From: Chlorobiota bacterium
Lineage (GTDB): Bacteria > Bacteroidota > Ignavibacteria > Kapaibacteriales > UBA961
Reading direction: 5' to 3'
Length of the DNA stretch: 64,000 nt
Assembly (NCBI GenBank): GCA_039810485.1
Contig: JBDHXA010000005.1
Location: forward strand, 1,192 to 65,191
The notes under the pieces are model-generated. The model saw nothing but the letters and a program-made list of their open reading frames with translations. It did no database searches and was not told the origin of the DNA. How positions within the stretch are numbered: the first letter of the stretch is position 1; each line of letters opens with the position of its first letter. Of the stretch, positions 31,012 to 49,831 are shown piece after piece. Made by a program: the position numbers and the translations under genes.

Positions 31012-32202
31012 ATGTCTATGTATAATATTAATCAATTAATCAATCGTTGCGAAGAACTAGCATTTGATTTAGATTATAATTGTGCGAAAGAGTGGAAAAA
31101 CGAAGATCCATCTCGTGTACTAGTTGGATATATGCCTATTTATTTCCCGCGTGAAATTGTCCATGCAGCCGGCGGCATGACGGTAGGCATTTTTGGCGGC
31201 GGAGATAGAAAGCAAATTATTAAAGGCGACGCATATTATCAGTCATATATTTGTCATATTCCAAGAAGTATTATAGATATGGCGCTTGACAAACATTATG
31301 ACAGCTTCGACGGTTTTATCTTCCCTTCAATATGTGATGTACTGCGAAATCTATCAGGAATTTTCAGACAAAAAGGTTTTGGAAAGTTTGTAAAGTATAT
31401 GGATTTTCCTCAAAATTTTCTACCGGAAGTTGGCGGTGTCTACTATCAGGACGAGATGCGCCATGTACTGCATTATATCAAAGAAATTAACGGAGTGGAA
31501 GTTACAATTGAAAAACTAAACCGTTCAATAGAGTTATATAATAGAAATCGTCGTCTTATTGCATTAATTTACGACATTCGCCAGAAATATCCTTGGAGAT
31601 TGTCTATGAAGGATTGGTATCATATTTTGCGAGCAGGCACTGTCATTCCGGTAGAGGAACATAATGAAATACTACAGCAAATCGCAGATTATATTAGGGA
31701 TGAAGTAGGAAAACCACAGGATAAGATTAAAGTGGTGCTTTCTGGTGCTTTCTGCGAACAGCCTTCTGTCGGTCTTATTCGCTCGATTGAAGATGCTGGA
31801 TGCTACATTGTAGATGATGATTTGCAATTAGGTTCCAGAATGATTATCGGTGATATTGATGCCACAACAGACAGTCCGCTGGCTGCAATAGCTAATGCTT
31901 ATATCAGTCAGAGTCAATACTCTTCCTCAATATATGATGTAGAAAATCCTAAAGAATACCGATTAGCTAAAATTGTGGAGGACAGAGGAGCCGACGGAGT
32001 TATTTTTGCTTCTGCCAGCTTTTGTGATCCGAGTTTGCTCGATGCCCCAATTTTTCAAAATGCCTTTGATAAAATGGGCATTCGATACATTGCTTTCCAA
32101 TTCAGCGAAAACATTAATCAGTTTAAGGTAATCAAAGAACAAGTAGGCGCATTTTCCGATTCCATTAAATTATGGGAAGATGAACCTGTACCCGTTGAAT
32201 AA
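31012..32202 (+). CDS. 2-hydroxyacyl-CoA dehydratase/benzoyl-CoA reductase family subunit (BcrC/BadD-like by size and position)
   Basis: 396 aa HGD-D family protein. First of four genes in a C-B-A-D-like order. Confidence 0.7.
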   Translation: MSMYNINQLINRCEELAFDLDYNCAKEWKNEDPSRVLVGYMPIYFPREIVHAAGGMTVGIFGGGDRKQIIKGDAYYQSYICHIPRSIIDMALDKHYDSFDGFIFPSICDVLRNLSGIFRQKGFGKFVKYMDFPQNFLPEVGGVYYQDEMRHVLHYIKEINGVEVTIEKLNRSIELYNRNRRLIALIYDIRQKYPWRLSMKDWYHILRAGTVIPVEEHNEILQQIADYIRDEVGKPQDKIKVVLSGAFCEQPSVGLIRSIEDAGCYIVDDDLQLGSRMIIGDIDATTDSPLAAIANAYISQSQYSSSIYDVENPKEYRLAKIVEDRGADGVIFASASFCDPSLLDAPIFQNAFDKMGIRYIAFQFSENINQFKVIKEQVGAFSDSIKLWEDEPVPVE

Positions 32203-32236
32203 AACCAAGTTATGTATAATATATAAATAAAAAAAT

Positions 32237-33523
32237 ATGGCAAAGGAAGTTATAAAAGAAAGAAGCATGATCCTTCAAAAAGAAATGATTGAAGGTCTCT
32301 TTAACGATTTGGAAAAAGCCCATGAAACAGGAAAAAAAGTATGCTATACTTTTGTTCCGGGAAATCTTTCCGAACTGATAAGAACTTTTGATATGCTACC
32401 GGTGTATCCCGAAATTAATGCACTGCAAAGCGCAATGCGTAAAAAATCAGCCGCGTATATCAAGGAAGCCGAGCGCCACGCACATTCTGAAGACGTATGT
32501 ACGTATGTAAAATGCGACGTTGGGATGTTGATGAAAGGAAACATTGGACCTACCGGACAAAAACTTCCGCCACCAGATATTCTCTTGCTTAGCTACACTG
32601 GTTGTTTCACTTTTATGAAATGGTTTGAAACGCTCAAAAGAGAATATCCAAACGCTACAGTGGTAATGATTCATACGCCATATCAAGAGAGTGGCACAAT
32701 GACGCCCGAAATGATAAATTATATGGTGAAGCAAATGAACGAGGAAGTAATTCCAAAAATGGAACAGGTCTCCGGCGTAAAATACGACGAAGAAAAACTC
32801 AAAAGTATTTTGGAACATTCGAAAGAAGCAGAAGATTGGATTACTAAAATATTTGACACCACCAAACATAAACCATCACCGATAGACGCTTATTTTGCCG
32901 GAGTATATTACATCGGACCAATTAATATTGGTTTCAGAGGCACGCCTGAGGCAGTTGAATATTATAAAGAATTGTATAATGAAATTCAGGAAAGAATTAG
33001 ATTAGGATTGGGACCTGTTACCCCGGAAGGTGAAATGCACGAGGAAAAATATCGGCTTGTAGTAGAAGGACCGCCAAATTGGACAAGTTTCCGTGAGTTC
33101 TGGAAAATATTCTATGATATGGGAGCTGTAATTGTTGCTTCGTCCTACACAAAAGTTGGAGGAGTATATGATCTTGGGTGGCGACACGACCCAGAAAAGC
33201 CGCTTCAATCTCTAGCCGAATATTGCATGAATTGCTATACAAACTTAAATATTCCGCAGCGCATAGATTTACTTACAAAATGTATTACTGAATATCAGGC
33301 GGACGGATATGTAACAAATTCAATAAAAAGCTGCAATTCATTCTCGGCAGGCCAGTTGGCTATGATGCGAGAAATTGAAGACCGCTTGGATATTCCGGTT
33401 GGATTTATTGAATCTGATTTAGTTGATCCTCGATATTTCTCATATTCTAATATAAAAAATCGTTTAGAGTCCTATTTTCAAATGTTGGCGCAGCGTAAAA
33501 TGATGGAAGCGCAAGAAGCGTAA
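32237..33523 (+). CDS. 2-hydroxyacyl-CoA dehydratase/benzoyl-CoA reductase family subunit (BcrB/BadE-like by size and position)
   Basis: 428 aa HGD-D family protein with Cys-containing segments. Second gene of the block. Confidence 0.7.
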   Translation: MAKEVIKERSMILQKEMIEGLFNDLEKAHETGKKVCYTFVPGNLSELIRTFDMLPVYPEINALQSAMRKKSAAYIKEAERHAHSEDVCTYVKCDVGMLMKGNIGPTGQKLPPPDILLLSYTGCFTFMKWFETLKREYPNATVVMIHTPYQESGTMTPEMINYMVKQMNEEVIPKMEQVSGVKYDEEKLKSILEHSKEAEDWITKIFDTTKHKPSPIDAYFAGVYYIGPINIGFRGTPEAVEYYKELYNEIQERIRLGLGPVTPEGEMHEEKYRLVVEGPPNWTSFREFWKIFYDMGAVIVASSYTKVGGVYDLGWRHDPEKPLQSLAEYCMNCYTNLNIPQRIDLLTKCITEYQADGYVTNSIKSCNSFSAGQLAMMREIEDRLDIPVGFIESDLVDPRYFSYSNIKNRLESYFQMLAQRKMMEAQEA

Positions 33524-33547
33524 TATCTATTTAGAAAGTAAAAAATT

Positions 33548-34975
33548 ATGAAAAAATATTTTTTAGGAATTGATCTTGGCTCTACTACTTCGAAAGCAGT
33601 TATTGTCAACGAAGCCGATGAAATTGTTGGCAGAGGTATCACAAATACCAGAGCAAACTACAAAGTAGCCGCAGATATAGCTCGCGAGCAGGCAATCTAT
33701 GACGCTCGCTTCAATCTGATTGAAAAAAGGATGAAAGACAGCATTGCAGGCAGATCAGAATTTAAAACTTACATGAAGGATTTGCGAAGCGTGTTTCAAT
33801 ACTGTCAGTTCAGAAGAAGAATGGACAGTTTGGAAAATATGCTTATTAAAACCGCTTCTGAATCAACACATCCTGAACGAGACACTATTGTAGAACGCCT
33901 TAAATCCATTATTGGCATTATTCGGCCGCAAATGCGTCATGAATTTATTCATGAAGGACTTGGCAGTAAAAATCAATTTTTCAGAGATATTGTCAGTGAA
34001 AAATATAATACCGAAGTCAGCAAAATTGAACCGAAATATTATGAGCCGTTAATGCTGGCATTTGACAAGAGCATTACGCCAATTGAAAATGAAATGGTGG
34101 ATTATTCTTTCAAAGAATTGGTGCTTGAATCAATGAAGATTCTGGAAGAAAAGTACGAAGGATTGGCTGACGAAAGAGAAGACGGAGGGAAAGAGTCGTG
34201 GTATTATGATGAAATGAACGCAGTAAAAAACGAATATAAAAATATTGAGCACACTCTTCGCTCGCATATCGAAGAAATAGCTGACGAGGAGATTTATATT
34301 GCAAAGATGGTTGGAACAGGATACGGAAGAGCGTTGCTGCCTTTCCCGGAAGATTGCATCAAGTCGGAAATCCTTTGCCATGCCTTTGGCGCTCATGCTG
34401 TTTTCCCGGGAACAAGAACAGTGCTTGATATCGGAGGTCAGGATACAAAAGCCATTCAAGTGGATAAATATGGCTTGGTTACAAGCTTTCATATGAATGA
34501 CAGATGCGCTGCGGGATGCGGCAGATATTTAGGATACATTGCCGACGAATTCGGATTGTCGCTCAACGAGTTAGGACCAGAGGCAAACAAAGCAAAAAAA
34601 GAAACGACAATTTGTTCGACATGCACTGTTTTCGCCGGAGCTGAAATAAAGGAATTGCTGCACAACGGCGAACAAAAGCCAGATATTCTGGCTGGACTTC
34701 ACAAATCTATTGTTCAACGAGCAATGTCGCTCATTGCACGTTCGGGTGGAGTAAGAAACGAATTTACTTTTACTGGCGGAGTAGCAAGGAATGAAGCTGT
34801 ATTGAAGTACGTGAAAAAAATGGTGATTGACTCCTATGGCGAAGTAACGATGAATATTCATACTGATTCAATTTTTATGGGCGCTTTGGGCGGCGCTATG
34901 TTTGCACGCCGAAATATAAGCACCGAACTGCCAAAAGGCACTATGATTAGAGAAACTGGCGACGTTAATAATTAA
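33548..34975 (+). CDS. BadF/BadG/BcrA/BcrD-type ATPase, long form (BcrA/BadF-like)
   Basis: 475 aa. Acetate/sugar-kinase-fold phosphate-1 motif GIDLGSTTSKAV and Cys pair CAAGCGRYLG typical of Fe-S-bridged activase ATPases. Has a ~190-aa insertion after phosphate-1, as in the large ATPase subunit of class I benzoyl-CoA reductase. Confidence 0.7.
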   Translation: MKKYFLGIDLGSTTSKAVIVNEADEIVGRGITNTRANYKVAADIAREQAIYDARFNLIEKRMKDSIAGRSEFKTYMKDLRSVFQYCQFRRRMDSLENMLIKTASESTHPERDTIVERLKSIIGIIRPQMRHEFIHEGLGSKNQFFRDIVSEKYNTEVSKIEPKYYEPLMLAFDKSITPIENEMVDYSFKELVLESMKILEEKYEGLADEREDGGKESWYYDEMNAVKNEYKNIEHTLRSHIEEIADEEIYIAKMVGTGYGRALLPFPEDCIKSEILCHAFGAHAVFPGTRTVLDIGGQDTKAIQVDKYGLVTSFHMNDRCAAGCGRYLGYIADEFGLSLNELGPEANKAKKETTICSTCTVFAGAEIKELLHNGEQKPDILAGLHKSIVQRAMSLIARSGGVRNEFTFTGGVARNEAVLKYVKKMVIDSYGEVTMNIHTDSIFMGALGGAMFARRNISTELPKGTMIRETGDVNN

Positions 34976-34988
34976 AGGAAACAATACA

Positions 34989-35843
34989 ATGGAAAATTCA
35001 ATTTATACAATGGGCATTGATGTTGGCGGCAGTTATGTTAAAACTGTTCTTATGCGCTATAATAAAGAGAGCGGACAACATCAATTAGTAGACAAACAAA
35101 CAGAAAAAATCAGAAAAAGAAATCCTAAAGATGTGGCTCACGACTCCATCGAAATGATTCTAGAACGCAATAATCTCAATTATGACAAGGATATTGCCTA
35201 TTTAGCTTCGACTGGAGAAGGCGAAATGGTCGAGAGAAAAACAGGACATTTCTACAGCATGACAACTCACGCTCGTGGCGGTGTCTTTTTCCATCCCGGC
35301 TCAAAAACAGTTGTTGATATGGGCGGCTTGTATGTTCGCGCAATTAAAATTGACGAACGCGGCAAAGTTCTGGATTATAAAATGACCGGTCAATGCGCCT
35401 CTGGTTCCGGACAGTTCATTGAAAATATATCACGATATCTTGGTTTGGCGGTAGAGGAAGTAGGAGATATTTCCATGCAAGCCGACAATCCCGAAGTTCC
35501 ATCAGGCATTTGTGCTGTTTTAGCAGAGACCGATGTTATTAACATGGTGTCCAAAGGAGCTTCTACACCCAATATAATCAAAGGCATTAATATATCTATC
35601 GCGCAAAGAGTTGTTAAACTTTTAAGCTCTCTAAAAGCAGAGTCGCCGATTATGTTGGTTGGAGGCATGGGCATGAATAAAGGAATGATCCAAGCTATTG
35701 AAGAGGTTGCTTCAGAGAATAAAAAAAGCAAACTTGAGTTTGTGTCGCATCCCGATGCAATCTTTTCAGGGGCTATCGGAGCTGCATTGTGGGGCGGCTA
35801 TCGCTATTATGTGCTTAAAGAAAAAGAAAAGCAAGCAGCATAA
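34989..35843 (+). CDS. BadF/BadG/BcrA/BcrD-type ATPase, short form (BcrD/BadG-like)
   Basis: 284 aa with GIDVGGSYVKTVLM and CASGSGQFIE motifs. Confidence 0.7.
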   Translation: MENSIYTMGIDVGGSYVKTVLMRYNKESGQHQLVDKQTEKIRKRNPKDVAHDSIEMILERNNLNYDKDIAYLASTGEGEMVERKTGHFYSMTTHARGGVFFHPGSKTVVDMGGLYVRAIKIDERGKVLDYKMTGQCASGSGQFIENISRYLGLAVEEVGDISMQADNPEVPSGICAVLAETDVINMVSKGASTPNIIKGINISIAQRVVKLLSSLKAESPIMLVGGMGMNKGMIQAIEEVASENKKSKLEFVSHPDAIFSGAIGAALWGGYRYYVLKEKEKQAA

Positions 35844-35887
35844 GAAATGGCTGTTTTTTCATAAACTGACTATAATGACTGATTGTA

Positions 35888-37636
35888 ATGGTGAATACAC
35901 TGCAATCCGCAACAATTCCGGGCAAGGCAAGGCAGAATATAGCAGTAATGCTTTCGGAAAATGCTGAAAAATTTGCTGAAAAATTTATTTATTGTGAAAA
36001 AAATCAAAACAATGAATATAAAGGGATTTTGTGGAAATCGTTTTATAATGATGCCCTAAATATAGCATGGAATCTGAAACAATCTGGGATTAAGAAAGGA
36101 ACTAAAGTTGTTCTTTACTGTCCTAATTCTCTCAATATGCTACTTGCTGAATTGGCTATTATGTCAATAGGTGCTATAGCTGTTCCTATCTTTGCCTATT
36201 TCAAAAAAAATACGTCAGAATTGCTGATAAATCATTCTGATGCCGAGTTCGTAATTTTAGCTGGTCAGTTTCAACTCAATGAAATGAGTCATGATCTACC
36301 CAAAATAAAATTAGTGTGGTCATTTGATGATGTTGAGAATAATACTCCTTTTGCAGTTCAAAAATTTGCCGATTTATTAAAAGATCGAAACGACATTGAT
36401 TTTGCCTTAGATATTAAAGCGCAGCCGAATGAAATATGTCTGAATATGTACACTTCTGGCACTATGGGGATTCCCAAATGCGTGCAGCTTACACATCAGA
36501 ACATTCTTTCGCAGCAAGCATCAATTCACACGGTCTTAAATGTGACGGCAGACGACAGGTTCCTTTCCTATTTGCCTTGGCATCATAGCTTTGGCGGAAT
36601 TTTTGAATTATTCAGCGCATTACACAATGGAGCTACATATTATTTAGAGAGCAGCTTTGGAAAAGATGCCAAATCCATATTTGAAAATTGGAGAAAAGTT
36701 CTGCCAACAGTTTTCTTTAGCGTCCCAAAGGTTTATCAATCTCTTTTTGAGCTGGCCAAAGAAAGCATAGAGGCCGAAAATGTTTTTTTTAATTCAGGGC
36801 TCAAATTCATTTTTACAGCTGCTGCAGCATTGCCTCAGCGACTATCAGATGAGTTTGAAAAACGTGGCATTGCCGTAATCGAGGGATGGGGGCTTACAGA
36901 AACATCGCCTTGCTGCACTCTCACAAATCCTAAGCTAAAACGCGAATCTGGAGTGGTTGGCATGCCTATTCCCGGCGTGAAAGTTCGAATTGCCGACGAT
37001 GATGAGATTCAAGTAAGCGGTCCTAATGTGATGGCTGGTTATTACCAAAATCCAGAGGCAAATGCTGAAGCATTCACTGAAGACGGCTGGTATAGAACTG
37101 GTGACGTCGGCGCAATTACTGAAAATGGATTAAAGCTTGTTTCAAGAAAAGATCGAATTTTTAAACTGTCAAACGGAGAAAAAGTAATTCCGACAGACTT
37201 AGAAAAAGCTATTGAATTAAAATGTCATTATGTGCAATATGTTGTTGTTGCAGGAAGCGGCGAAGAATATCCCGTCGCTTTAATATTTCCGAATAGAAAA
37301 CTGCTTGAAAATCCTGATCTTACGTTAAATACAGAGCAACAATGCGCTTGTCCGCAAAATATTAGCGAAATGGGGCGCTGTTTGCCGACCTGTCTTCAAT
37401 TGGCAAATGATTCAATAGGACAAAAATTCGCAAAAGTCAAATCTGTTGCAATTATAGACGATGTGCTTTCACTAGACAATAACATGCTGACTCCTTCAAT
37501 GAAAGTTGCGCCTAAAAACGTTGTGGATAAGTATAAAACCCATTTAAAGAATCTTTATGGCGATAATGTGCCAACTGATGAAGAAGTGTATATCATTGAA
37601 TTAGAACCTAAAAACAATTTGAAGCGATGTATATAA
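35888..37636 (+). CDS. AMP-dependent acyl-CoA synthetase/ligase
   Basis: 582 aa with AMP-binding signature YTSGTMGIPKCVQLTHQN. Substrate unknown; an aromatic or alicyclic acid is plausible from context. Confidence 0.85.
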   Translation: MVNTLQSATIPGKARQNIAVMLSENAEKFAEKFIYCEKNQNNEYKGILWKSFYNDALNIAWNLKQSGIKKGTKVVLYCPNSLNMLLAELAIMSIGAIAVPIFAYFKKNTSELLINHSDAEFVILAGQFQLNEMSHDLPKIKLVWSFDDVENNTPFAVQKFADLLKDRNDIDFALDIKAQPNEICLNMYTSGTMGIPKCVQLTHQNILSQQASIHTVLNVTADDRFLSYLPWHHSFGGIFELFSALHNGATYYLESSFGKDAKSIFENWRKVLPTVFFSVPKVYQSLFELAKESIEAENVFFNSGLKFIFTAAAALPQRLSDEFEKRGIAVIEGWGLTETSPCCTLTNPKLKRESGVVGMPIPGVKVRIADDDEIQVSGPNVMAGYYQNPEANAEAFTEDGWYRTGDVGAITENGLKLVSRKDRIFKLSNGEKVIPTDLEKAIELKCHYVQYVVVAGSGEEYPVALIFPNRKLLENPDLTLNTEQQCACPQNISEMGRCLPTCLQLANDSIGQKFAKVKSVAIIDDVLSLDNNMLTPSMKVAPKNVVDKYKTHLKNLYGDNVPTDEEVYIIELEPKNNLKRCI

Positions 37637-38838
37637 TCAAATCAACAGATAAAATGAAAACAATAATGGGCGAATATTTTCGCTCATTAGAAACAGGTGA
37701 AAAGAAGATTGCTTGGTGCACCAGCGTCGGACCTGCCGAACTTCTGCGATCATTTGGATTTGAAGTGTATTTTCCGGAAAATCACGGAGCATTGTTGGGA
37801 GCGACACGCACAGCTATGGATGTAATTCCAGAAGCAGTAAAAAGCGGATATTCTGGTCATGTATGCTCATATACAACTGCTGATATTGGCTCATATTTAA
37901 GAAATGAAACACCGCTAAAAAAGCACTATGGTCTGAAAGGACATCCCAAGCCAGACATAATCGCTTTCAACACCAATCAGTGCAGAGAAGTTCAAGATTG
38001 GTTTTATTTCTTTGCTAACGAGTTTGACTGTCCAATTGTAGGCATCACACCTCCGCGTCATTTGGAAGAAGTTAATCAAAAAGAAGTGGATTTGGTGGTT
38101 GAACAGTTCAAAGAAATGATACCGACTTGCGAGCATGTAAGCGGGCAGAAATATGACGAGGACAAATTCAAGGAAACTGTTCGCTTAAGCAAAGAAGCAA
38201 CGCTGTTGTGGCAAAAGGTTCTGAAAACTTCTACAGCCATGAACGCCCCAATCAGCTTCTTTGACGGCACAATCCACATGGGTCCGATTGTAGTGCTTCG
38301 TGGAACCCAGATTGCCAAAGATTATTACGCTGAATTGCTTGCCGAGCTTGAAGAAAATGTAAAAAATAATATTGGATTTCTGCTTAAAGCGAGAACGCGA
38401 ATCTTCTGGGAAGGAATGCCAATTTGGGGCAAACTTCGTATGCTGAGCGATTTATTTAATTCTAACGGAGCCGCAGTTGTTGCTTCAACCTATTGCAGTA
38501 GCTGGGTGTTCGATAAATTTGACGAGAACGATCCATGGAATTCGACTGCCAGAGCATACACGGAAATTTTTATCAATCGCGGCGAGAAGGCTAAAATGAA
38601 AATGCTGGGCGACTGGTTCAAGGAATACAGCATTGACGGCATTGTGTATCACGATTCAAAAACATGCTTTAATAATTCCAATGCCAAGTTTGGCATGCCG
38701 CAGCGCTTGAAAGAAATAACAGGAATTCCGGCGTTAGTTATTGAAGGTGATCTATGCGATTTAAGATTCTTCAGCGAGGGTCAAAGCATTACAAAAATTG
38801 AAACCTTTTTAGAACAGCTTGAAGAAAGCAAAGTATAA
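37627..38838 (+). CDS. Third 2-hydroxyacyl-CoA dehydratase-family (HGD-D) subunit
   Basis: 403 aa. N-terminal region WCTSVGPAELLRSFGFEVYFPENHGA is typical of the family. It has no partner second subunit directly adjacent and precedes the reductase-activase fusion. Confidence 0.7.
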   Translation: MYIIKSTDKMKTIMGEYFRSLETGEKKIAWCTSVGPAELLRSFGFEVYFPENHGALLGATRTAMDVIPEAVKSGYSGHVCSYTTADIGSYLRNETPLKKHYGLKGHPKPDIIAFNTNQCREVQDWFYFFANEFDCPIVGITPPRHLEEVNQKEVDLVVEQFKEMIPTCEHVSGQKYDEDKFKETVRLSKEATLLWQKVLKTSTAMNAPISFFDGTIHMGPIVVLRGTQIAKDYYAELLAELEENVKNNIGFLLKARTRIFWEGMPIWGKLRMLSDLFNSNGAAVVASTYCSSWVFDKFDENDPWNSTARAYTEIFINRGEKAKMKMLGDWFKEYSIDGIVYHDSKTCFNNSNAKFGMPQRLKEITGIPALVIEGDLCDLRFFSEGQSITKIETFLEQLEESKV

Positions 38839-38840
38839 AA

Positions 38841-40685
38841 ATGAACAACAATCATAAAATACGGGTCGGCATTATTGGCTTAGGTCCTGTCGGAATGATT
38901 TTGGCTGTCAAACTTCAACAGGCGGGCTGTGAAGTTGCTTTGTGCATTCGAAACGAAATAAAGCGTATCAAAATTATTAATGAAGGCATAAAACTTGAAA
39001 ATGTCTTTAATGATACGGCATGTTTCTCTCATGTTTATAGCAATATTGAAGATTTTGCGCAGTTAGATCTTGATTACCTCATATTTGCTGTAAAATCCTA
39101 TCACGTACCAGCTTTGCTTGGCGCTGCTTCTGCTCTAATCACCGAGAAACTCTCCATAATTGTCGCGCAAAATGGCATTGACACCGAACAGCTCTATGTG
39201 CATACATTCGGAGAAAGCAAATTAATCCGCATGGTGATAAATTTTGCTGGCAATCAAATCAATCCAAATACGGTAAAGGTAAGTTTTTTTACTCCGCCAA
39301 ATTATTTAGGCTCAATTAATGACAACCGTAGAAAAGAAGCTGACTTGCTTGCTGAAATGCTAACATCGGCTAATTTAACAACCGAAGCAATAAGCGCTTT
39401 TGACTTAGTTAAAAAAGTTTGGCAAAAAACAATTCTTAACTCTTCGCTAAGCGCTTTGTGCGGCGTTGGCAGATTAACGATGGCTGAGGCAATGTCTGAT
39501 CCGGATACTGTAGAATTGATAGAGCAAACGATCAATGAAGCAGTATTGGTGGCAGAAACCGAGAAAATCAAATTCGATGATAATTTTATCAGAGAATGTA
39601 TGCGCTATCTAAAAAAAGGAGGCGATCACTTCCCTTCGTTAGCACTCGATTTGATAAACGGCAGAGAAACCGAAATTGAATTTTTTAATGGAAAAATCGT
39701 TGAATACGGCCGCAAACATTATGTGCGCGCCTCTCTAAATCTGTCATTTACCAATATGGTAAATGCGATGACTAATAAGAATATTATTTCGAGAATGCCC
39801 GGTATTACCAATGACGTCAATAAAAAAATTCTCAAAAAGGGGCTGACAGTCAGCAGTGAATCTCTCAATCAGTATAAAAGGTCGGATTGTTTCCTAGGTA
39901 TTGACTTAGGCTCTGCTTACACCAAATTTACTGTAATAGATGACAATGGCAGTGCATTGTTCAGATATTTTCTTCCGACGCTAAATAGCGACAAGCAGGC
40001 GTTCAAAAACGTAATGCAAACAATAAGCTCCAATTTTAACATCAGTTATAGTTGTGCCACCGGCTATGGACGCAAGCATTTTAATTTGTCGGATATTGTC
40101 AAAACAGAAATAAACTGTGCATCGGCAGGAGTGTCGTTCGCTCATCATGGTGAAAAAAACATAATTGATATTGGCGGTGAGGACATCAAGATAATTCGCT
40201 GTGATAATGATAATAATGTGCAAAACTTTTACATGAACGATAAATGCGCCGCCGGAACCGGCGCATTTCTTTCAGAAATCGCCGAGCGTGCCGCAATTAA
40301 CATTGCAGAAATGAGCGCTCTTGCCTCTTTGTCAAGTTACGAGAAGGAACTTAATAGTTTTTGCACAGTTTTTGCCAAAACCGAAATTATGAATTGGATT
40401 TTTGAAGGTATGTCCCTTGAGGATATTTCAAGAGGCGTCTATAATTCTATTGCCAATAAAATTGCCAAAATGAGAATAGATCCCGGAATTCCAACATTCA
40501 TGATCGGCGGAGTAATTGCCCATCATCCATATCTGAAACATATCTTAGCCGAAAAATTTAATCTTAAAATAAATATTGTGGAAGCTCCGCAATACGTTGT
40601 GTCATATGGTGCTGCAGTTATTGCGGCAAAAATGTACAATAAAAAAGAAAAAGCAGAATTGGAATTAATTGAAGCAGAAAGTTAA
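38841..40685 (+). CDS. Fusion protein: N-terminal ketopantoate-reductase (PanE/ApbA)-like NAD(P)-dependent 2-oxoacid reductase domain + C-terminal BadF/BcrA/HgdC-type activase ATPase domain
   Basis: 614 aa. Residues 1-~320 carry a Rossmann motif (VGIIGLGPVGMILAVKL) and a PanE-like C-terminal domain. Residues ~345-614 carry GIDLGSAYTKFTVID and CAAGTGAFLSEIAE, the activase hallmarks. Confidence 0.65.
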   Translation: MNNNHKIRVGIIGLGPVGMILAVKLQQAGCEVALCIRNEIKRIKIINEGIKLENVFNDTACFSHVYSNIEDFAQLDLDYLIFAVKSYHVPALLGAASALITEKLSIIVAQNGIDTEQLYVHTFGESKLIRMVINFAGNQINPNTVKVSFFTPPNYLGSINDNRRKEADLLAEMLTSANLTTEAISAFDLVKKVWQKTILNSSLSALCGVGRLTMAEAMSDPDTVELIEQTINEAVLVAETEKIKFDDNFIRECMRYLKKGGDHFPSLALDLINGRETEIEFFNGKIVEYGRKHYVRASLNLSFTNMVNAMTNKNIISRMPGITNDVNKKILKKGLTVSSESLNQYKRSDCFLGIDLGSAYTKFTVIDDNGSALFRYFLPTLNSDKQAFKNVMQTISSNFNISYSCATGYGRKHFNLSDIVKTEINCASAGVSFAHHGEKNIIDIGGEDIKIIRCDNDNNVQNFYMNDKCAAGTGAFLSEIAERAAINIAEMSALASLSSYEKELNSFCTVFAKTEIMNWIFEGMSLEDISRGVYNSIANKIAKMRIDPGIPTFMIGGVIAHHPYLKHILAEKFNLKINIVEAPQYVVSYGAAVIAAKMYNKKEKAELELIEAES

Positions 40686-40688
40686 CAA

Positions 40689-41885
40689 ATGAAAAAAGCG
40701 AATTCATTAACACAAGAAGCAAGAATACCTTATGGAACATGGGGCGCAAGCTATTTTCCAGCTTGGCAGAGTTCTCCCTTAGCCGAGGTGAATATAGGCC
40801 AGTTTGCTGGTGAATCTATGGCGCGAATTTTATCCAAGAGAAGAGTTTCCACTTCGCATTTGGATTATCTGATGATAGGTTCAACCGTGCCTTGGCATTT
40901 CAAATTTTGGAATGCGACGGTTGTGGCTAATTGTATGGGAAGAAGGATTCCGGGTTTCCATATTGAGCAAGCTTGCGCAACGGGTTTGCAGGCTGTAGTG
41001 TTGGCTGCTATGCAAGTACAGTCTGGAGCAAGCGAAACAGTAGGAGTTTTGACATTCGACAGAACGAGTGATTCGCCTGCAAGCGTTTTCCCTGAAAGAA
41101 GGGCTTATCGCAGAACAGAAGTAATGAGTGATGTGTGGGACAATTTCGGCTTTGACCCTTCTACCGAAAATGCTATGATTAGTTCGGCAGGTAATGTTGC
41201 AAGGAAATATAAAATTGACAGAAAAGAAACTGATGAACTCACTGCATATCGTTACCAGCAATACTTTGAGGGGAAAGAAAACGGATTCCTTAACCGTGTA
41301 GCTATGCCCTTAGAAATATTGAATGTGCAAGGGAAATCAATGGGTATTATTAGCGAAGATGTGGGCGTGAGAAAAATTTCTCTTGATTCCCTTCGTGCCA
41401 TGAAAGACCTTGATACTTGCGTAACAAGTGGCACACAAACTCATGCCGCCGATGGAATGGCAACTTTGCTTGTAACATCAGTAGATAAAGCGAAGGAAAT
41501 CAGCCCAAGACCTGAAATTAATATAAGTTTTGTGGCAAAAACAGAAGTTCGCGTGCTGCCATCATGCATGCCGGAAGCTCCCGCTTTTGCTGTCAAAAAA
41601 TTATTAGATAAAACAGGGCTTAATTTGGAAGATATGGCCGTTGTAAAAGATCATAATCCTTTTGCAGTCAATGATGCAGTATTCTCAAAAGTGATGAATT
41701 ACGACTGGAAAAAAATGAATAACAACGGAAGCCCTTTAGTCTGGGGACATCCGCAAGGCCCTACGCTAACACGAGTTATCATTGAAGCTTTGGAAGAGGC
41801 GGTTGATCTTGGGGGCGGCTATGTTTTAGTGTTTGGCTGTGCTGCCGGCGATGTGGGAATTGCTTCAATTTTTAAGGTAAACTGA
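40689..41885 (+). CDS. Thiolase-family acyl-CoA C-acyltransferase-like protein
   Basis: 398 aa. Active-site Cys region ACATGLQAVVLAAMQVQSGA and C-terminal thiolase-like GSPLVWGHPQGPTLTR. Confidence 0.55.
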   Translation: MKKANSLTQEARIPYGTWGASYFPAWQSSPLAEVNIGQFAGESMARILSKRRVSTSHLDYLMIGSTVPWHFKFWNATVVANCMGRRIPGFHIEQACATGLQAVVLAAMQVQSGASETVGVLTFDRTSDSPASVFPERRAYRRTEVMSDVWDNFGFDPSTENAMISSAGNVARKYKIDRKETDELTAYRYQQYFEGKENGFLNRVAMPLEILNVQGKSMGIISEDVGVRKISLDSLRAMKDLDTCVTSGTQTHAADGMATLLVTSVDKAKEISPRPEINISFVAKTEVRVLPSCMPEAPAFAVKKLLDKTGLNLEDMAVVKDHNPFAVNDAVFSKVMNYDWKKMNNNGSPLVWGHPQGPTLTRVIIEALEEAVDLGGGYVLVFGCAAGDVGIASIFKVN

Positions 41886-41895
41886 CAAAAACGAT

Positions 41896-43986
41896 ATGAA
41901 GAAATCAATAAGAAAATCAACACTTGAAGCCCTTGGATTGGGAACAGTTTCGGATATATTCAATAATGGGAAACTGCCTATTTCTTTAGAAGAAATGGTT
42001 GATAAGGTTTTTGGAGATAAAAATAATAGAGGTGCAATGGTCATTTCCGGTGCCGGTGGAATTGTTGGTGCCGGAAAAGTGATGCAATTCGCTTCAAGGC
42101 TTATGGAGTTTGATGTTCCAATCATTGCATTGGATTTACCGGGTGCGCCTGACGGAATTGCAAAACAGTACAAGGGTTTGCAGGCTTCTTTTGGAACGGA
42201 AGGAGCTAACAATATCATGAAGAACATTATTAAATTGAATTATGATGGAAGTACATTGCCTACAACTTTAAAGCAATACAACCCTAAGTTTTTACTTGAA
42301 GCCATTCCCGAAAAATTAGAACTGAAAAAAGCACATTATGCTTTGTTTAGAAAGGAGTTTCCTGATATTCATATTTGGTCTGTAACTTCAGGTTTTCCTT
42401 CCAAGGAATTAGGCGTTGGCATTGCTCATCCTGCATTTCCGCATGAGATAAACAAAATTTTTGAAATTGTTGAAGAAAAGCCGTCGGTACACACGCATCT
42501 GTTGTGGGCGATGGGTTTGATCCCCATGCAGGTTAGCGATGATTGGTCTTTTGTGCTTGATGTCTTTTTCTGCGGTTTGTTGCAGGCAAGCATCCAATTT
42601 TGTAACTATACCAATACACCATATTGGAAAGCTGATAAATATATTCGCCAAATTCTTGGACCAAATCCTTTTAGAGCGCATGATGTGATTGGCGCAAAAG
42701 GGTCTAATTTCCTGACATGGTCATGTTTATATCATCTGGGAAAAGAATATGGAGAACTCTTTGACCCAACAGCAGAGCTTACAGAAAGAAAAGACAGTGG
42801 ACAAAATTGGTATCCCGCCAATCATTTAAGACCACTAGTAAACTGGCATTTGGATGGCGAACAGAGCGAAGAACTCAAAATCATTGTATATGGCGCATTG
42901 ATACAGATGACAACTATCATGCTGCATGAGAATCGCTCTGATCTAAGCACAATGTCGGCAATCGGCGAATTATGCGCCCAATTTACAAAAGGAGTGCCGG
43001 CTGTTATCCGCAAAATGGGAACAGAAAAGGCATTGGATTTAGTGGAAAAATATCATCGCCTTGTGCCTTTGGCTGCCAAAACAAAATGGTATCCCGATAC
43101 TTTGCAGAATCTGAACACGGCAGAATGGCAGCAGTTGTATGTAAACGCAGAGCATGACGGCACAAATGGTTATGTCTGCATTAGCAGAGAAAGCTACAAC
43201 TATGATGTAAATGAAGAACTCAACCGTGCCATTGACTGGTTACATAAGGAAGGAATCAAAAAGGTGGTTCTAACTTCTGACTTCCATTTCTCGACACAGA
43301 TGGTGGGAGCGGATACCACAGAGTTCTTCCCTGCTGTAACCAACAGCGATATTGGAGAAAAAATATCTTCGGATTGGTCAAAAACAGCTCGAAGATTTTA
43401 CAATGAGTTTGAAACATCCATAGGTTTTGTGAATGGCAAGAGATGTATGGGTGGAATGTTGGAACTGATGATGCACTGCCAATATCTTATTGCACCTGAA
43501 CAAGTAAAATTTGCAATGCCGGAAGTAACACTGCCGGTGATTCCCGGAATGGAGGGCTGTCATTGGGTCTTTAGAAAAACAAGCAAAGAAAATCAAGCCA
43601 AAATGCTCGATTTGCTTCTGAACGGAAAGCAAATTAATGCGAAGCAAGCGCAAGGTTTTCTTGTAGATTACACAAGCTCGCTTAATGATTGTTTGGCAAT
43701 GGCAAAGAATATTCTCGAAAATGGCGAAGCCTCATTGCCAAAGCGAAAAATTACAGAAGATGCAATTCCCGAAATTGCATCTGAAATAGAGAAAATAACA
43801 TTGTCAGATAATCCGCAATTTTTGTCAGCACAAAAAGAGATAGCCAATTGCATTATTGCTTCCTGCAATACAACCGCAGAAGAAGCGCTGCAAATTCAAG
43901 CGAAAATATCGGCTAAATTTATGTCCGACCAATTATTTCGCAAAGGGAAAATAGGGGTTGAATATGATAAACTCAATCAAAACTAA
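41896..43986 (+). CDS. 3-hydroxyacyl-CoA dehydrogenase / enoyl-CoA hydratase-like fusion protein
   Basis: 696 aa. N-terminal Gly-rich dinucleotide fold (MVISGAGGIVGAGKV) and C-terminal crotonase-like segment (GKRCMGGMLELMMHCQYLIA). Domain order is inferred without alignment. Confidence 0.5.
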   Translation: MKKSIRKSTLEALGLGTVSDIFNNGKLPISLEEMVDKVFGDKNNRGAMVISGAGGIVGAGKVMQFASRLMEFDVPIIALDLPGAPDGIAKQYKGLQASFGTEGANNIMKNIIKLNYDGSTLPTTLKQYNPKFLLEAIPEKLELKKAHYALFRKEFPDIHIWSVTSGFPSKELGVGIAHPAFPHEINKIFEIVEEKPSVHTHLLWAMGLIPMQVSDDWSFVLDVFFCGLLQASIQFCNYTNTPYWKADKYIRQILGPNPFRAHDVIGAKGSNFLTWSCLYHLGKEYGELFDPTAELTERKDSGQNWYPANHLRPLVNWHLDGEQSEELKIIVYGALIQMTTIMLHENRSDLSTMSAIGELCAQFTKGVPAVIRKMGTEKALDLVEKYHRLVPLAAKTKWYPDTLQNLNTAEWQQLYVNAEHDGTNGYVCISRESYNYDVNEELNRAIDWLHKEGIKKVVLTSDFHFSTQMVGADTTEFFPAVTNSDIGEKISSDWSKTARRFYNEFETSIGFVNGKRCMGGMLELMMHCQYLIAPEQVKFAMPEVTLPVIPGMEGCHWVFRKTSKENQAKMLDLLLNGKQINAKQAQGFLVDYTSSLNDCLAMAKNILENGEASLPKRKITEDAIPEIASEIEKITLSDNPQFLSAQKEIANCIIASCNTTAEEALQIQAKISAKFMSDQLFRKGKIGVEYDKLNQN

Positions 43987-43992: not shown

Positions 43993-45051
43993 ATGAAAAA
44001 ATTACAACAATGGCAAATGACTGAACTGAAAGCTGACTTCAAGTTGGTTGAGTCAGAAATACCTTCGCTTAAAGAAGGCGAAGCTTTGATAAAAGTGGCC
44101 GGATGCGGCGTATGTCATACCGATCTAAGCTTTTGGCACGACGGAGTGCGAACAAAGAAAGAAATGCCTTTGACCCTAGGGCATGAAATCAGCGGAACTG
44201 TCATTGACGGTCCTAACCATTTGAAAGATAAGAATGTTATCATTCCCGCCGTGCTGCCTTGCGGCGACTGCGAACTATGCAATAAAGGCAGGAGCAATAT
44301 GTGTCAGAATCAATTAATGCCGGGCAATGACTTCCACGGAGGTTTCGCATCGCATATCGTGGTGCCGCACAAATTTTTGTGCCCTGTTCCTGATGCTGTT
44401 TTGCAGAAATATAAATTAGAGGAATTGGCTGTAATAGCCGACGCCATTTCAACTCCGTATCAGGTTTTAAAAAAATCAGAATTAGAAAAAGGTGATTTAG
44501 CTATATGTATTGGTGTTGGTGGTGTAGGAGTGTATGGTGCTCTGATAGCAAAAATCATGGGTGCAAAAGTGTTGGCTATTGACATCAACGATGAAAAGTT
44601 AGAGAAGGCAAAGAACAACGGTATTCATGCCACTCTCAATTCAAAAGGAATGGATACCAAGGAAGTTAAAGCCAAAGTAAAAGAAATTGCGAAAGAATTG
44701 GGCGCACCGAAGTATGGCTGGAAAATTTTTGAATTTTCTGGCACAACACCAGGCCAAGAACTAGCGTTCAATCTTTTAGCCTTTACATCAACTCTAAGTA
44801 TAGTTGGCTTCACAATGAGTAAATTAGAGCTCAGATTAAGCAACCTTATGGCTTTTGATGCGAAAATTATCGGTACTTGGGGTTGCAAGCCCGAACTCTA
44901 CGCAGAAGTTGTTGATTTGATTTCATCAGGCAAATTGGATATTAAAGATTTCGTACAAATATTTCCTATGAGTAAAATCAATGAAGTATTTCAAAACACT
45001 TTAGCACATAAATACACCAAGCGTTCTGTATTAATTCCAGATTTCAATTAA
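43993..45051 (+). CDS. Zinc-dependent medium-chain alcohol dehydrogenase (Had-like candidate)
   Basis: 352 aa with GCGVCHTDLSFW and GHEISG Zn-ligand motifs and a Rossmann GVGGVGVYG motif. Confidence 0.85.
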   Translation: MKKLQQWQMTELKADFKLVESEIPSLKEGEALIKVAGCGVCHTDLSFWHDGVRTKKEMPLTLGHEISGTVIDGPNHLKDKNVIIPAVLPCGDCELCNKGRSNMCQNQLMPGNDFHGGFASHIVVPHKFLCPVPDAVLQKYKLEELAVIADAISTPYQVLKKSELEKGDLAICIGVGGVGVYGALIAKIMGAKVLAIDINDEKLEKAKNNGIHATLNSKGMDTKEVKAKVKEIAKELGAPKYGWKIFEFSGTTPGQELAFNLLAFTSTLSIVGFTMSKLELRLSNLMAFDAKIIGTWGCKPELYAEVVDLISSGKLDIKDFVQIFPMSKINEVFQNTLAHKYTKRSVLIPDFN

Positions 45052-45074
45052 ATAAAAAATATTAAACAATAGAA

Positions 45075-46178: not shown

Positions 46179-46180
46179 TT

Positions 46181-46954: not shown

Positions 46955-46969
46955 TAGCAATTCTGAAAA

Positions 46970-48796: not shown

Positions 48797-48797
48797 A

Positions 48798-49817: not shown

Positions 49818-49831
49818 ATTGGAACACTACA

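Follow-up and report, generated by a model that had tools for sequence, protein, structure and literature searches.

A reductase-activase fusion beside a lone HGD-D subunit in the benzoyl-CoA reductase operons of uncultured Bacteroidota

The stretch of DNA analyzed here, referred to as the window, is 64,000 nucleotides long and contains a gene for a 614-aa protein in which a 2-oxoacid reductase domain is joined to an activase-type ATPase. The preceding gene encodes a single subunit of the HGD-D family, here called HGDD3. The question raised by this locus is whether such a fusion is real and, if so, what it would do in an operon that separately encodes a complete benzoyl-CoA reductase (BCR).

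Gene layout, reality and distribution of the fusion

The features considered are the following.

31012..35843, + strand: bcrC, bcrB, bcrA and bcrD, Thauera-type class I benzoyl-CoA reductase (NCBIfam profiles)
35888..37636, + strand: AMP-forming acyl-CoA ligase, 582 aa (Pfam AMP-binding, 232.6 bits, and AMP-binding_C_3)
37627..38838, + strand: HGDD3, lone catalytic-type HGD-D subunit, 403 aa (Pfam HGD-D, 198.9 bits, full-length)
38841..40685, + strand: whole fusion gene, 614 aa (ApbA, ApbA_C and BcrAD_BadFG domains)
38841..39785, + strand: N-terminal half of the fusion, residues 1-315, PanE/ApbA-family NAD(P)H-dependent 2-oxoacid reductase domain (ApbA and ApbA_C)
39786..39884, + strand: inter-domain linker, residues about 316-348 (low conservation, low pLDDT)
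39885..40685, + strand: C-terminal half of the fusion, residues 349-614 and stop, HgdC/HadI-type archerase/activase ATPase (BcrAD_BadFG)
40689..41885, + strand: thiolase, 398 aa (Pfam Thiolase_N and Thiolase_C)
41896..43986, + strand: 3-hydroxyacyl-CoA dehydrogenase/enoyl-CoA hydratase-like (HCDH/ECH) protein, 696 aa (weak 3HCDH_N and ECH_1/ECH_2)
43993..50179, + strand: had, oah, dch, korA, korB and, from about 49832, a 2x[4Fe-4S] ferredoxin (profiles/motif)

The gaps between ligase, HGDD3, fusion and thiolase are -10, 2 and 3 nt, the first being an overlap of the ligase stop with the HGDD3 start. The bcr genes score 417, 661, 409 and 323 bits with TIGR02263, TIGR02260, TIGR02259 and TIGR02261, and the downstream context scores 451 (TIGR03201), 595 (TIGR03200), 224 (TIGR03189) and 638 bits (OAFO_sf); the ferredoxin motif starts at 49856. 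A 4-hydroxybenzoyl-CoA-reductase-like Mo enzyme is also encoded within the island. Among ORFs of at least 150 aa in the 64-kb window, the only other HGD-D genes identified with Pfam are bcrC and bcrB. The ligase is the only CoA ligase in the operon. Its best NCBIfam matches are fatty-acyl-type ligases, with scores below cut-off, and no benzoate-CoA-ligase model appears among the best 25 matches listed; it is a candidate activator of a 2-hydroxy acid.

The preliminary description of this DNA had proposed the PanE/ApbA-activase fusion, the 403-aa HGD-D protein lacking an adjacent paralogous partner, and the acyl-CoA ligase directly upstream. All of these were confirmed, including the exact ORF coordinates and the quoted motifs. 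It had also proposed a second, distinct module within an island: the module is indeed archerase-dependent and distinct from BcrCBAD, yet the identity of the island as a benzoyl-CoA reductase operon had been missed. The possibility, raised there, of a gene pair merged by a frameshift was excluded: at least 120 clusters from NCBI, JGI, ENA and Logan assemblies, at 66-100% identity, encode an uninterrupted fusion of about 600-646 aa that retains each of the three domains, and it is likewise intact in 34 GTDB species genomes. The fusion is real and conserved in many uncultured Bacteroidota.

There is next to no chance that the fusion arose from an error of assembly or sequencing, or that its ApbA half is an ordinary pantothenate PanE placed there by accident. 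In some loci the two halves are separate genes overlapping by just 4 nt, which a single-base error could merge, and the source databases call the protein "2-dehydropantoate 2-reductase". However, the intact fusions come from different assemblers, the conserved 32-residue linker is missing from the split genes, every NCBIfam PanE equivalog model scores below its own cut-off, and the linkage with HGD-D and activase is retained in fused and split versions alike. Both ideas are effectively refuted by the intact fusions across clusters, genomes and conserved loci.

The search for the same fusion and its neighborhoods, as the preliminary description had suggested, found it to be recurrent. All 32 genome loci whose sequence extends upstream of the HGDD3/fusion pair carry bcr genes there, and had-oah-dch follow downstream in 29 of 34. 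The pair invariably belongs to a Thauera-type class I BCR operon, with the CoA ligase immediately before it. Peptides of the fusion itself served to retrieve the 34 genome loci, and every one comes from Bacteroidota or Ignavibacteria, so that this synteny is in large part a reflection of common descent. A CoA-activating gene lies directly 5' of the HGD-D gene in every locus with upstream sequence; it is an ADP-forming acyl-CoA synthetase, at the position of the AMP-forming ligase, in the Vicingus-type loci and in L039 (loci with this swap: L002, L016, L018, L030 and L039). In L020, a thiolase and an HCDH/ECH gene are inserted between the HGD-D and fusion genes. Among loci with gene calls, L001 and L041-L043 have a thiolase directly 3' of the fusion or activase gene, and clearer homologues of the 696-aa protein (668-672 aa) are found in L001 and L002. 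The four-gene unit (ligase or synthetase, HGDD3, ApbA, activase) is kept through swap, split or fusion, and insertion.

No description of the reductase-activase architecture was found in the literature searched, in line with its being called undescribed at the outset, and a published family survey reports only catalytic-subunit/archerase fusions (PMC7317905). The fusion and the single dehydratase-type subunit are a previously undescribed extra module in a benzoate-degradation operon.

Sequence and fold of the fusion and of HGDD3

Pfam assigns ApbA to residues 9-149 (70 bits), ApbA_C to 189-310 (92 bits) and BcrAD_BadFG to 352-595 (118 bits), all above gathering cut-offs; in NCBIfam, TIGR00745 (apbA_panE) scores 157.7 bits against a cut-off of 141, and TIGR00241 (acyl-CoA dehydratase activase) 175.8 against 125. 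Across 36 homologues, the invariant residues of the ApbA half are GxGxxG (G13, G15, G18), N111, K196, N200, S266, D270 and E278, which line up with catalytic motifs seen in structures of the ApbA family. By sequence and fold, the nearest solved structures are 2EW2 of E. faecalis and the D-mandelate dehydrogenases 8WL1, 3WFI and 5X20, the latter leading true ketopantoate reductases by a small margin. The D-mandelate dehydrogenases of Enterococcus faecium (3WFI/5X20) and Lactobacillus brevis (8WL1) have the same Lys/Asn/Ser/Asp/Glu catalytic motifs, although identity is just about 20-24% and, unlike the fusion, none of these members of the ketopantoate-reductase family is joined to another domain. 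In addition, 3WFJ and 5X20 are NADH complexes, whereas in the fusion the beta2 loop has Arg37-Asn38 in place of an acidic residue, which suggests a preference for NADPH.

The activase motifs are located at residues 353-367 (GIDLGSAYTKFTVID) and 469-480 (CAAGTGAFLSEI). The solved relatives of this half are, best first, HadI 4EHT (135 bits), MbdQ, HgdC 1HUX and DCCP-R 7YYL. C426 and C469 are invariant and align with both cluster cysteines of HgdC, and the ASKHA phosphate/adenosine motifs (D355-G357-S358, D443-G445-G446-E447-D448 and G556-G557-V558) are likewise invariant. The two halves are each complete, with catalytic and cofactor positions retained.

The halves are separated by a linker of roughly 32 residues, the least conserved internal stretch of the fusion (mean 0.56, residues 326-350). 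In the AlphaFold model (pTM 0.52), pLDDT falls below 50 at residues 296-323, where the ApbA_C domain gives way to the linker. In L041-L043, ApbA (321 aa) and activase (265 aa) are separate genes of the same operon with an ATGA overlap, and in L039 they are 128 nt apart; L040 has a 569-aa fusion without the linker, and L038 a different, Pro-rich one. A nicotinamide hydride donor, moreover, cannot directly reduce the one-electron [4Fe-4S] cluster of an activase. The earlier proposal that the covalent link couples substrate reduction to electron injection is not supported by these observations. Given the split, linker-less and other-linker versions, the fusion is read as a stabilized functional partnership (co-expression, co-localization) rather than an obligatory coupling device.

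HGDD3 clearly belongs to the catalytic (alpha, HadB/BzdO) class. Among solved structures it scores highest with 3O3M_A, the alpha subunit HadB (167 bits), then with MbdO and BzdO; its NCBIfam profile scores are 216 bits for HadB, 161 for BcrB and 73 for double_cubane. The AlphaFold model (pLDDT 82, pTM 0.85) presents TM-scores of 0.88 to HadB, 0.83 to MbdO/BzdO, 0.76 to DCCP and about 0.70 to beta/gamma subunits. HGDD3 and HadB share the PEN motif (E51) and a Val where BzdO has His131. Eight cysteines are invariant or nearly so among 39 family members. Of these, C80, C119 and C347 align with C95/C128/C380 of BzdO and with the HadB ligands (cluster ligands from PMC11971306), and are predicted to bind a [4Fe-4S] cluster.

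A possible dehydratase pathway and its alternatives

The ligase, HGDD3 and the fusion, probably with the thiolase and the hydratase/dehydrogenase, may well form a ketyl-radical module of the 2-hydroxyacyl-CoA dehydratase (HAD) type with an arylpyruvate as likely substrate, a reading we hold tentatively. Using NAD(P)H, the ApbA half would reduce a 2-oxo acid to its (R)-2-hydroxy counterpart, which the upstream ligase would convert to the CoA thioester. The activase half would dimerize around a bridging [4Fe-4S] cluster held by C426 and C469, accept a single electron from the ferredoxin encoded in the operon (KorAB to Fdx) and, upon ATP hydrolysis, inject it into the [4Fe-4S] cluster of HGDD3 (C80, C119, C347). 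HGDD3, presumably a homodimer, would then generate the substrate ketyl radical, eliminate the alpha-hydroxyl and release an enoyl-CoA, from which the hydratase/dehydrogenase and thiolase would remove C2. The most likely substrate is phenylpyruvate or 4-hydroxyphenylpyruvate from Phe/Tyr, which would pass via aryllactyl-CoA to cinnamoyl- or 4-coumaroyl-CoA. Beta-oxidation would yield benzoyl-CoA or 4-hydroxybenzoyl-CoA for BcrCBAD or the 4-hydroxybenzoyl-CoA-reductase-like enzyme, both island-encoded.

This reading draws on the tight adjacency of the four canonical HAD-pathway functions and their persistence through rearrangement, the proximity of HGDD3 to HadB by sequence, profile and fold, and the invariance of the ApbA catalytic residues and the activase cluster and ATP motifs. 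An aromatic substrate is suggested by the bcr genes upstream, had-oah-dch downstream and the Mo enzyme, and by the resemblance of the ApbA half to D-mandelate dehydrogenases, which act on aromatic 2-oxo acids. That the ligase serves the module is suggested by its being the sole CoA ligase and by its NCBIfam matches; however, it could simply be the operon's benzoate-CoA ligase. The thiolase and HCDH/ECH protein are no independent support for cinnamoyl-CoA beta-oxidation, because breakdown of 3-hydroxypimeloyl-CoA and crotonyl-CoA needs both too. Also against a dehydratase, HGDD3 falls far short of the HadB equivalog cut-off (216 against 750 bits), five further invariant cysteines (C31, C135, C168, C290 and C377) have no role in the model, and no beta-type HGD-D gene is adjacent to HGDD3 in any locus, whereas all characterized HADs are, to our knowledge, alpha/beta heterodimers.

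HGDD3 and the activase half could instead constitute an ATP-consuming, BCR/DCCP-like reductase of a benzoyl-CoA analogue or ring intermediate (e.g., by reductive dehydroxylation or substituted benzoyl-CoA reduction), with the ApbA half performing an adjacent keto reduction. This is unlikely overall, yet it would account for the strict embedding of the pair in the BCR operon, for pairwise scores against BcrB (about 157-159 bits) nearly equal to those against HadB, and for C31, C135 and C168, common to HGDD3 and the BCR catalytic subunit MbdO and not found in HadB. Equimolar activase and dehydrogenase, as imposed by the fusion, also suit stoichiometric electron delivery better than a catalytic activator, and HADs need only catalytic amounts of activator. 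Furthermore, one HGD-D protein with its own activase is the DCCP/DCCP-R layout (PMC7317905). Nevertheless, profile and fold scores favor HadB, HGDD3 scores below the cut-offs of all BCR models (161 against 486 bits for TIGR02260), the known ring intermediates are beta-substituted and offer no obvious substrate to an ApbA-type 2-oxoacid reductase, and the four-gene unit of L039 has a thiolase, not bcrD, in front of it, although that contig is short and bcr may lie further off.

The same locus, with no bcrC in the 3.6 kb of upstream sequence covered, argues against HGDD3 pairing with BcrC, rather than with itself, in a second BcrC-sharing enzyme with the fusion activase as dedicated injector. 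We regard such pairing as improbable, even though HGDD3 is of the catalytic alpha/BzdO class without a partner gene, bcrC, the sole beta/gamma-type HGD-D gene of the operon, is present there in nearly all loci, and the known family members whose catalytic cluster has three Cys ligands form heterodimers (PMC11971306); it would fit dehydratase or reductase chemistry alike, and is not an independent functional model. A reverse shunt is very improbable: glutaconyl-CoA, from the glutaryl-CoA that the lower benzoyl-CoA pathway yields, would be hydrated to 2-hydroxyglutaryl-CoA and converted via 2-hydroxyglutarate to 2-oxoglutarate, regenerating the substrate of KorAB, which supplies BCR with two low-potential electrons per ring. 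The inferred stoichiometry is exact (one glutaryl-CoA per benzoyl-CoA, two electrons per 2-oxoglutarate), korAB and ferredoxin are in the operon, and Vicingus-type loci have a reversible ADP-forming CoA synthetase and an acyl-CoA dehydrogenase whose second-best NCBIfam match is the Desulfococcus-type glutaryl-CoA dehydrogenase Acd (278 bits, below cut-off). PanE-family enzymes, however, strongly favor reduction, and NAD(P)+-linked 2-hydroxyglutarate oxidation is uphill; in addition, most loci have an AMP-forming ligase, irreversible toward the thioester, the window contains no glutaryl-CoA dehydrogenase, and nothing indicates C5-dicarboxylate specificity.

Relation to known systems and to benzoate degradation

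The proposed dehydratase module matches LdhA/HadA/HadBC/HadI of Clostridioides difficile, the (R)-2-hydroxyisocaproyl-CoA dehydratase system, in its four functions: besides a D-2-hydroxyacid dehydrogenase and an enzyme for CoA activation, these are a catalytic HGD-D subunit whose [4Fe-4S] cluster is bound by three Cys and an ASKHA activase whose bridging cluster sits on two Cys. Among solved structures, HGDD3 is best matched by HadB and the activase half by HadI. Unlike the Had system, the module has no gene for a beta subunit (HadC), its dehydrogenase is activase-fused and of PanE/ApbA rather than 2-Hacid_dh fold, CoA activation is by a ligase instead of a transferase, HGDD3 has the five extra cysteines, and the surrounding operon is one for benzoyl-CoA in a respiratory (nitrate-reducer) setting, not for fermentation. 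In Clostridium sporogenes, phenyllactate dehydratase (FldABC), together with the dehydrogenase FldH and the initiator FldI, converts arylpyruvate to (R)-aryllactate, aryllactyl-CoA and cinnamoyl-CoA. This is the chemistry proposed for the module, the two being compared here at the level of the described reactions, with the same differences in subunit composition and fusion; the Fld system is cited in a passage of PMC13416013. Whereas the Fld product undergoes reduction to phenylpropionate in the reductive Stickland branch, that of the module would be beta-oxidized to benzoyl-CoA and dearomatized.

The double-cubane cluster protein DCCP of C. hydrogenoformans with its reductase DCCP-R, like YjiM/YjiL, also pairs one HGD-D-family gene with one activase gene, both DCCP and the ATPase serving it being homodimeric (PMC7317905). 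HGDD3, however, lacks the 7-Cys motif of DCCP, scores 73 bits on NF040772 against a cut-off of 350, retains W30, the Trp that fills the lost sub-cluster space in BzdO (PMC11971306), and is nearer in fold to HadB and BzdO. Class I BCRs (BcrCBAD, BzdNOPQ, MbdONQP) belong to the same superfamily in both components, HGDD3 aligning with the catalytic subunits MbdO and BzdO, and its three cluster cysteines with theirs, and the module, encoded in the bcr operon, probably uses the same ferredoxin supply. It differs in having one activase gene instead of two and no gamma/N-type partner, and the complete BcrCBAD set is encoded separately beside it.

In a nitrate-reducing reactor, a dominant Flavobacteriales MAG is reported to have expressed peptidases, peptide uptake systems and enzymes of anaerobic benzoyl-CoA degradation (PMC8099898), which fits an amino-acid source of benzoyl-CoA. 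If the dehydratase reading is true, the module would feed amino-acid-derived acids into the anaerobic benzoate pathway.

The benzoyl-CoA gene row and its surroundings

On its plus strand, the window carries a single densely packed row of genes at 31012-50179, identified by a survey of ORFs of at least 150 aa and, for the shorter ferredoxin ORF, by its Cys motifs. The row, with the evidence by which each gene was assigned, is as follows.

Genes of the row at 31012-50179 (window positions, strand, assignment)
31012-32202, +, bcrC (TIGR02263, 417 bits)
within 31012-35843, +, bcrB (TIGR02260, 661 bits)
within 31012-35843, +, bcrA and bcrD (NCBIfam matches)
35888-37636, +, AMP-forming acyl-CoA ligase, 582 aa (family match)
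37627-38838, +, HGD-D protein HGDD3, 403 aa (family match)
38841-40685, +, fusion protein FUS, 614 aa (Pfam and NCBIfam)
40689-41885, +, thiolase (family match)
41896-43986, +, dehydrogenase/hydratase-like protein, 696 aa (family match)
from 43993, +, had (TIGR03201, 451 bits)
after had, within the row to 50179, +, oah (TIGR03200, 595 bits)
within the row to 50179, +, dch (family match)
within the row to 50179, +, korA and korB (family match)
from about 49832 (ORF 49832-50179), +, 2x[4Fe-4S] ferredoxin (Cys motifs)

The row thereby amounts to the full Thauera-type class I benzoyl-CoA operon, with bcrCBAD, had, oah, dch, korAB and a ferredoxin gene. It is adjoined by respiratory narGHJI and molybdenum-cofactor genes, which lie upstream at 13552-20111. 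The presence of a benzoyl-CoA operon beside narGHJI points to a denitrifying aromatic degrader. The best-matching homologues are labelled MAG Bacteroidia or Flavobacteriales, and the host is an uncultured member of the Bacteroidota, a phylum that is not commonly linked to ATP-dependent ring reduction. Downstream of the row (52324-56065), a 4-hydroxybenzoyl-CoA-reductase-like molybdenum enzyme is encoded, whose [2Fe-2S] gamma and Mo alpha subunits are joined in one 930-aa protein that, with 818 bits, falls short of the TIGR03194 cut-off (994); the gene for the beta subunit follows. Among the related loci from other genomes and contigs, the fused gamma-alpha form is also found in L041 and L042, and in L040 the two subunits are encoded separately. 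Hemerythrin-domain genes are present on both sides of the island (20170-20838 and 56123-56632) and recur directly 3' of hcrB in L041 (15779-16264) and L042 (16042-16566); they may serve to sense oxygen or to protect the oxygen-sensitive enzymes of the island.

Several members of the row deserve separate description. The 696-aa protein has a weak 3HCDH_N match (E 8e-4) and a weak ECH match, both of which are strong in its counterparts in L001 and L002 (668-672 aa); this pattern marks it as a divergent bifunctional enzyme of beta-oxidation. The ferredoxin ORF, directly 3' of korB, has two Cys-rich motifs, a canonical CxxCxxCxxxCP and an extended one (CTECVGFHDEPQCATVCPVDCC), and its product likely carries electrons to both BcrAD and the activase half of FUS. 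According to pairwise alignments, the BcrC of the window (31012-32202) and MbdN have no cysteine where BzdN has the double-cubane ligands C36 and C263, so the [8Fe-9S] cluster described for BzdN may be missing from Thauera/Mbd-type gamma subunits. A scan of 30500-50400 for promoters and terminators, made with a sigma-70 consensus that is not appropriate for Bacteroidota, gave site counts equal to those of shuffled controls.

A reductase fused to an archerase

The preliminary description proposed that FUS joins a ketopantoate-reductase-like (PanE/ApbA) domain to an activase-type ATPase, or archerase. This architecture stands, and both halves were confirmed by Pfam domains above the gathering cut-offs: ApbA (PF02558) at residues 9-149, with 70.0 bits against a cut-off of 22.2, ApbA_C (PF08546) at 189-310, with 92.1 bits against 22.7, and BcrAD_BadFG at 352-595. 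FUS also passes the NCBIfam cut-offs of TIGR00745 (157.7 bits, cut-off 141.35) and TIGR00241 (175.8 bits, cut-off 125.4), the latter aligned over residues 352-594 and profile positions 3-248 of 248. At least 120 clusters from independent NCBI, JGI, ENA and Logan assemblies, with 66-100% identity and lengths of about 600-646 aa, each contain all three domains, and the intact fusion is present in 34 species-representative genomes, which together rule out a frameshift or assembly artefact. In a library clustered at 50% identity, the ApbA-activase layout was evident in three fused representatives among the best 150 matches, which indicates that the FUS family is compact.

The reductase half is closest, in both sequence and predicted fold, to the solved structures of E. 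faecalis 2EW2 and of the D-mandelate dehydrogenases (8WL1 from L. brevis; 3WFI and 5X20 from E. faecium), with true ketopantoate reductases close behind. Residues G13, G15 and G18 (the GxGxxG motif), N111, K196, N200, S266, D270 and E278 are the same in all 36 homologues compared and match the catalytic motifs of 2EW2, 8WL1 and 3WFI in the alignment; the catalytic Lys, Asn, Ser, Asp and Glu positions are those we take to correspond to the numbering of E. coli PanE. None of the NCBIfam PanE equivalog models assigns FUS to its family, the best being NF005091 with 115.6 bits against a cut-off of 252, and the others score still lower relative to their own cut-offs. The activase half matches the solved structures of HadI, MbdQ, HgdC and DCCP-R (DCCP being the double-cubane cluster protein). 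Its ASKHA ATP-binding motifs (DLGS, DIGGED and GGV) are invariant, and C426 and C469, both kept, correspond to the cysteines that ligate the cluster in HgdC (1HUX) and HadI (4EHT). It is accordingly classed by homology as an acyl-CoA dehydratase activase, or archerase, with a predicted inter-subunit [4Fe-4S] cluster on C426/C469, and both halves of FUS look functional from their conserved residues.

It had further been claimed that the fusion mechanistically ties substrate reduction to electron injection, and this part does not hold. In L041-L043, from marine Flavobacteriales, the same operon has two genes, overlapping by ATGA, for a 321-aa ApbA protein and a 265-aa activase; in L039 the two genes are split, 128 nt apart; L040 has a 569-aa fusion with no linker, and L038 a 609-aa fusion with a different linker and no HGD-D gene beside it. 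Within FUS itself the linker is poorly conserved, and the AlphaFold model has a pTM of 0.52, with pLDDT below 50 at the domain boundary (residues 296-323). Given the split, linker-less and long-linker forms, the unconserved linker and the low-confidence boundary, the evidence argues that the fusion records a partnership rather than a new coupled mechanism. The L038 fusion (1164-2993) is 39% identical, lies on a contig with a GC content of 0.51 and adjoins NifU and cysteine desulfurase genes; given the lack of a nearby HGD-D gene, it is regarded as an orphan relative.

The literature search found no paper describing an ApbA-activase fusion, and the fusions in the family survey by Jeoung and co-workers are of catalytic subunits with archerases only (PMC7317905). 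A PanE-type reductase tethered to an archerase is a new domain combination for the archerase family.

The catalytic-type protein HGDD3

The sequence search gave the alpha subunit HadB as the best solved match of HGDD3, with 167 bits, followed by MbdO and BzdO. The AlphaFold model (pLDDT 82) presents TM-scores of 0.88 with HadB, the only 2-hydroxyacyl-CoA dehydratase (HAD) available among the solved structures for this comparison, 0.83 with MbdO and BzdO, 0.76 with DCCP, and about 0.70 with beta/gamma-type subunits. C80, C119 and C347 are invariant and align with the HadB ligands and with C95, C128 and C380 of BzdO, which are the three ligands of its catalytic [4Fe-4S]-OH2 cluster (PMC11971306). 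W30 of HGDD3 corresponds to the Trp of BzdO that takes up the room left by the lost sub-cluster (PMC11971306), the PEN glutamate is also kept (E51), and the position of BzdO His131 is occupied by Val, as in HadB. Sequence and model thus assign HGDD3 to the catalytic-class HGD-D fold, with three predicted [4Fe-4S] cysteine ligands.

This assignment does not extend to any curated equivalog. HGDD3 scores 216.3 bits against the cut-off of 750 of the HadB model NF052455, 161.2 against 486.55 and 71.9 against 448.6 with the subunit B models of class I benzoyl-CoA reductase (BCR), TIGR02260 and TIGR03191, and 73 against 350 with the double_cubane model NF040772; by these scores it belongs to none of the HadB, BcrB and double_cubane families. 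A bona fide bcrB (661 bits) is encoded separately. As the preliminary description had it, HGDD3 stands alone: no second, paralogous HGD-D gene adjoins it in the window or in about 40 related loci, the other HGD-D genes being bcrC and bcrB.

Five further cysteines of HGDD3 (C31, C135, C168, C290 and C377) are invariant or nearly so in the family. C31, C135 and C168 are also present in the BCR catalytic subunit MbdO but absent from HadB. With eight conserved cysteines in all, and with C290 at a double-cubane ligand position of BzdN and DCCP (L4) and C31 next to another (L1), a double-cubane [8Fe-9S] cluster was considered. As a classification it was rejected: the cysteine spacings of HGDD3 (48, 38, 15, 32, 121, 56 and 29) differ from the seven-cysteine motif of DCCP, CX19CX18-19CX29CX166-170CX32-34CX32C (PMC7317905), no cysteine is present at L5 (BzdN C293), C31 is one residue off the L1 register, W30 is kept, and the NF040772 score is low. 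Some other extra metal site in HGDD3 is conceivable.

Conservation and proposed function of the module

When the window proteins were mapped onto the related loci by tblastn, bcr genes were found upstream of the HGDD3-FUS pair in all 32 genome loci with upstream sequence, had-oah-dch downstream in 29 of 34 loci, and a CoA-activating gene directly 5' of HGDD3 in every case. In the Vicingus-type loci and L039, an ADP-forming synthetase takes the place of the AMP-forming ligase in the same position, and in L020 a thiolase and a dehydrogenase/hydratase gene are inserted between HGDD3 and FUS. The four-function unit therefore survives gene rearrangement among loci; since FUS-derived peptides were used to retrieve these loci, all from a single phylum-level group, part of the synteny reflects inheritance and not independent evolution.

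The Vicingus-type loci have no had-oah-dch within 10 kb. They carry a 155-aa ORF between the HGD-D and fusion genes (L002 9486-9953, L003 8058-8525), for which no Pfam or NCBIfam match was found, together with caprolactamase-like hydantoinase A/B (HydA/HydB), RidA, an acyl-CoA dehydrogenase, an HMG-CoA-synthase-like/DUF35 protein and a thiolase. As clues to the substrate these extra genes gave no clear pointer, all their scores being below the cut-offs.

Since a reductase, CoA activation, a catalytic HGD-D protein and an archerase, all adjacent, make up the parts list of a HAD pathway, the module is read from its gene content as HAD-like, with a reductase of the D-2-hydroxyacid-dehydrogenase type. 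The ferredoxin and KorAB of the operon would be its natural electron source. The substrate is most plausibly an arylpyruvate, each argument for this being circumstantial: the module has its fixed place within a benzoyl-CoA operon; genes for beta-oxidation lie interleaved with it; for a Tyr-derived product, an enzyme resembling 4-hydroxybenzoyl-CoA reductase is available; only one CoA ligase is encoded, and no benzoate-CoA-ligase model appears among its best matches listed; the reductase half is nearest to aromatic 2-oxoacid reductases; and a related Flavobacteriales population is reported to express both peptidases and the anaerobic pathway of benzoyl-CoA (PMC8099898). The beta-oxidation argument is weakened by the fact that the lower benzoyl-CoA pathway, too, requires the thiolase and the dehydrogenase/hydratase. 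A candidate route would lead from arylpyruvate through aryllactyl-CoA and a cinnamoyl-type CoA ester to benzoyl-CoA.

Two alternatives to this reading are serious, namely that the HGDD3 module is an ATP-stoichiometric reductase of a benzoyl-CoA analogue, and that HGDD3 borrows BcrC, encoded in the same row, as its partner subunit. A reverse shunt regenerating 2-oxoglutarate would fit the presence of korAB in the operon, yet is unlikely on thermodynamic and ligase-type grounds. Returning to the arylpyruvate reading, its fullest form is one we put forward tentatively, and consider rather doubtful as a whole: HGDD3 would be the founder of a beta-less, probably homodimeric, archerase-dependent ketyl-radical class, with five extra invariant cysteines, two of which (C31 and C290) lie at or beside positions of former double-cubane ligands that line the acyl pocket; through HGDD3 and an archerase tethered to a dehydrogenase, nitrate-respiring Bacteroidota and Ignavibacteria would have the above route, hitherto undescribed, from Phe/Tyr-derived arylpyruvates, and the BCR operon of these abundant necromass scavengers would then be primarily aromatic-amino-acid catabolic.

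The literature search found neither a third HGD-D/archerase module nor a HAD-like module in Bacteroidota BCR operons. Within the known HAD/BCR superfamily, the module is set apart by its partner-less catalytic subunit, its PanE-type reductase and the reductase-archerase fusion. Archerase-dependent enzymes (HADs, class I BCR and DCCP) are the known means by which cells use ATP to bring electrons to potentials below the normal biological redox window, and a catalytic HGD-D protein with no electron-relay partner subunit would, if true, change their accepted minimal architecture. Knowledge of the substrate would correct the current database names '2-dehydropantoate 2-reductase', 'lactoyl-CoA dehydratase subunit alpha' and 'benzoyl-CoA reductase subunit B'. 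Many uncultured Flavobacteriales, Vicingaceae, Saprospiraceae and Ignavibacteria, found in denitrifying and anammox reactors, groundwater and oxygen-poor sea water, have the module as a fixed part of their benzoyl-CoA operon. The substrate of the module would reveal what these widespread heterotrophs channel into anaerobic ring reduction, likely protein-derived aromatic amino acids rather than pollutants.
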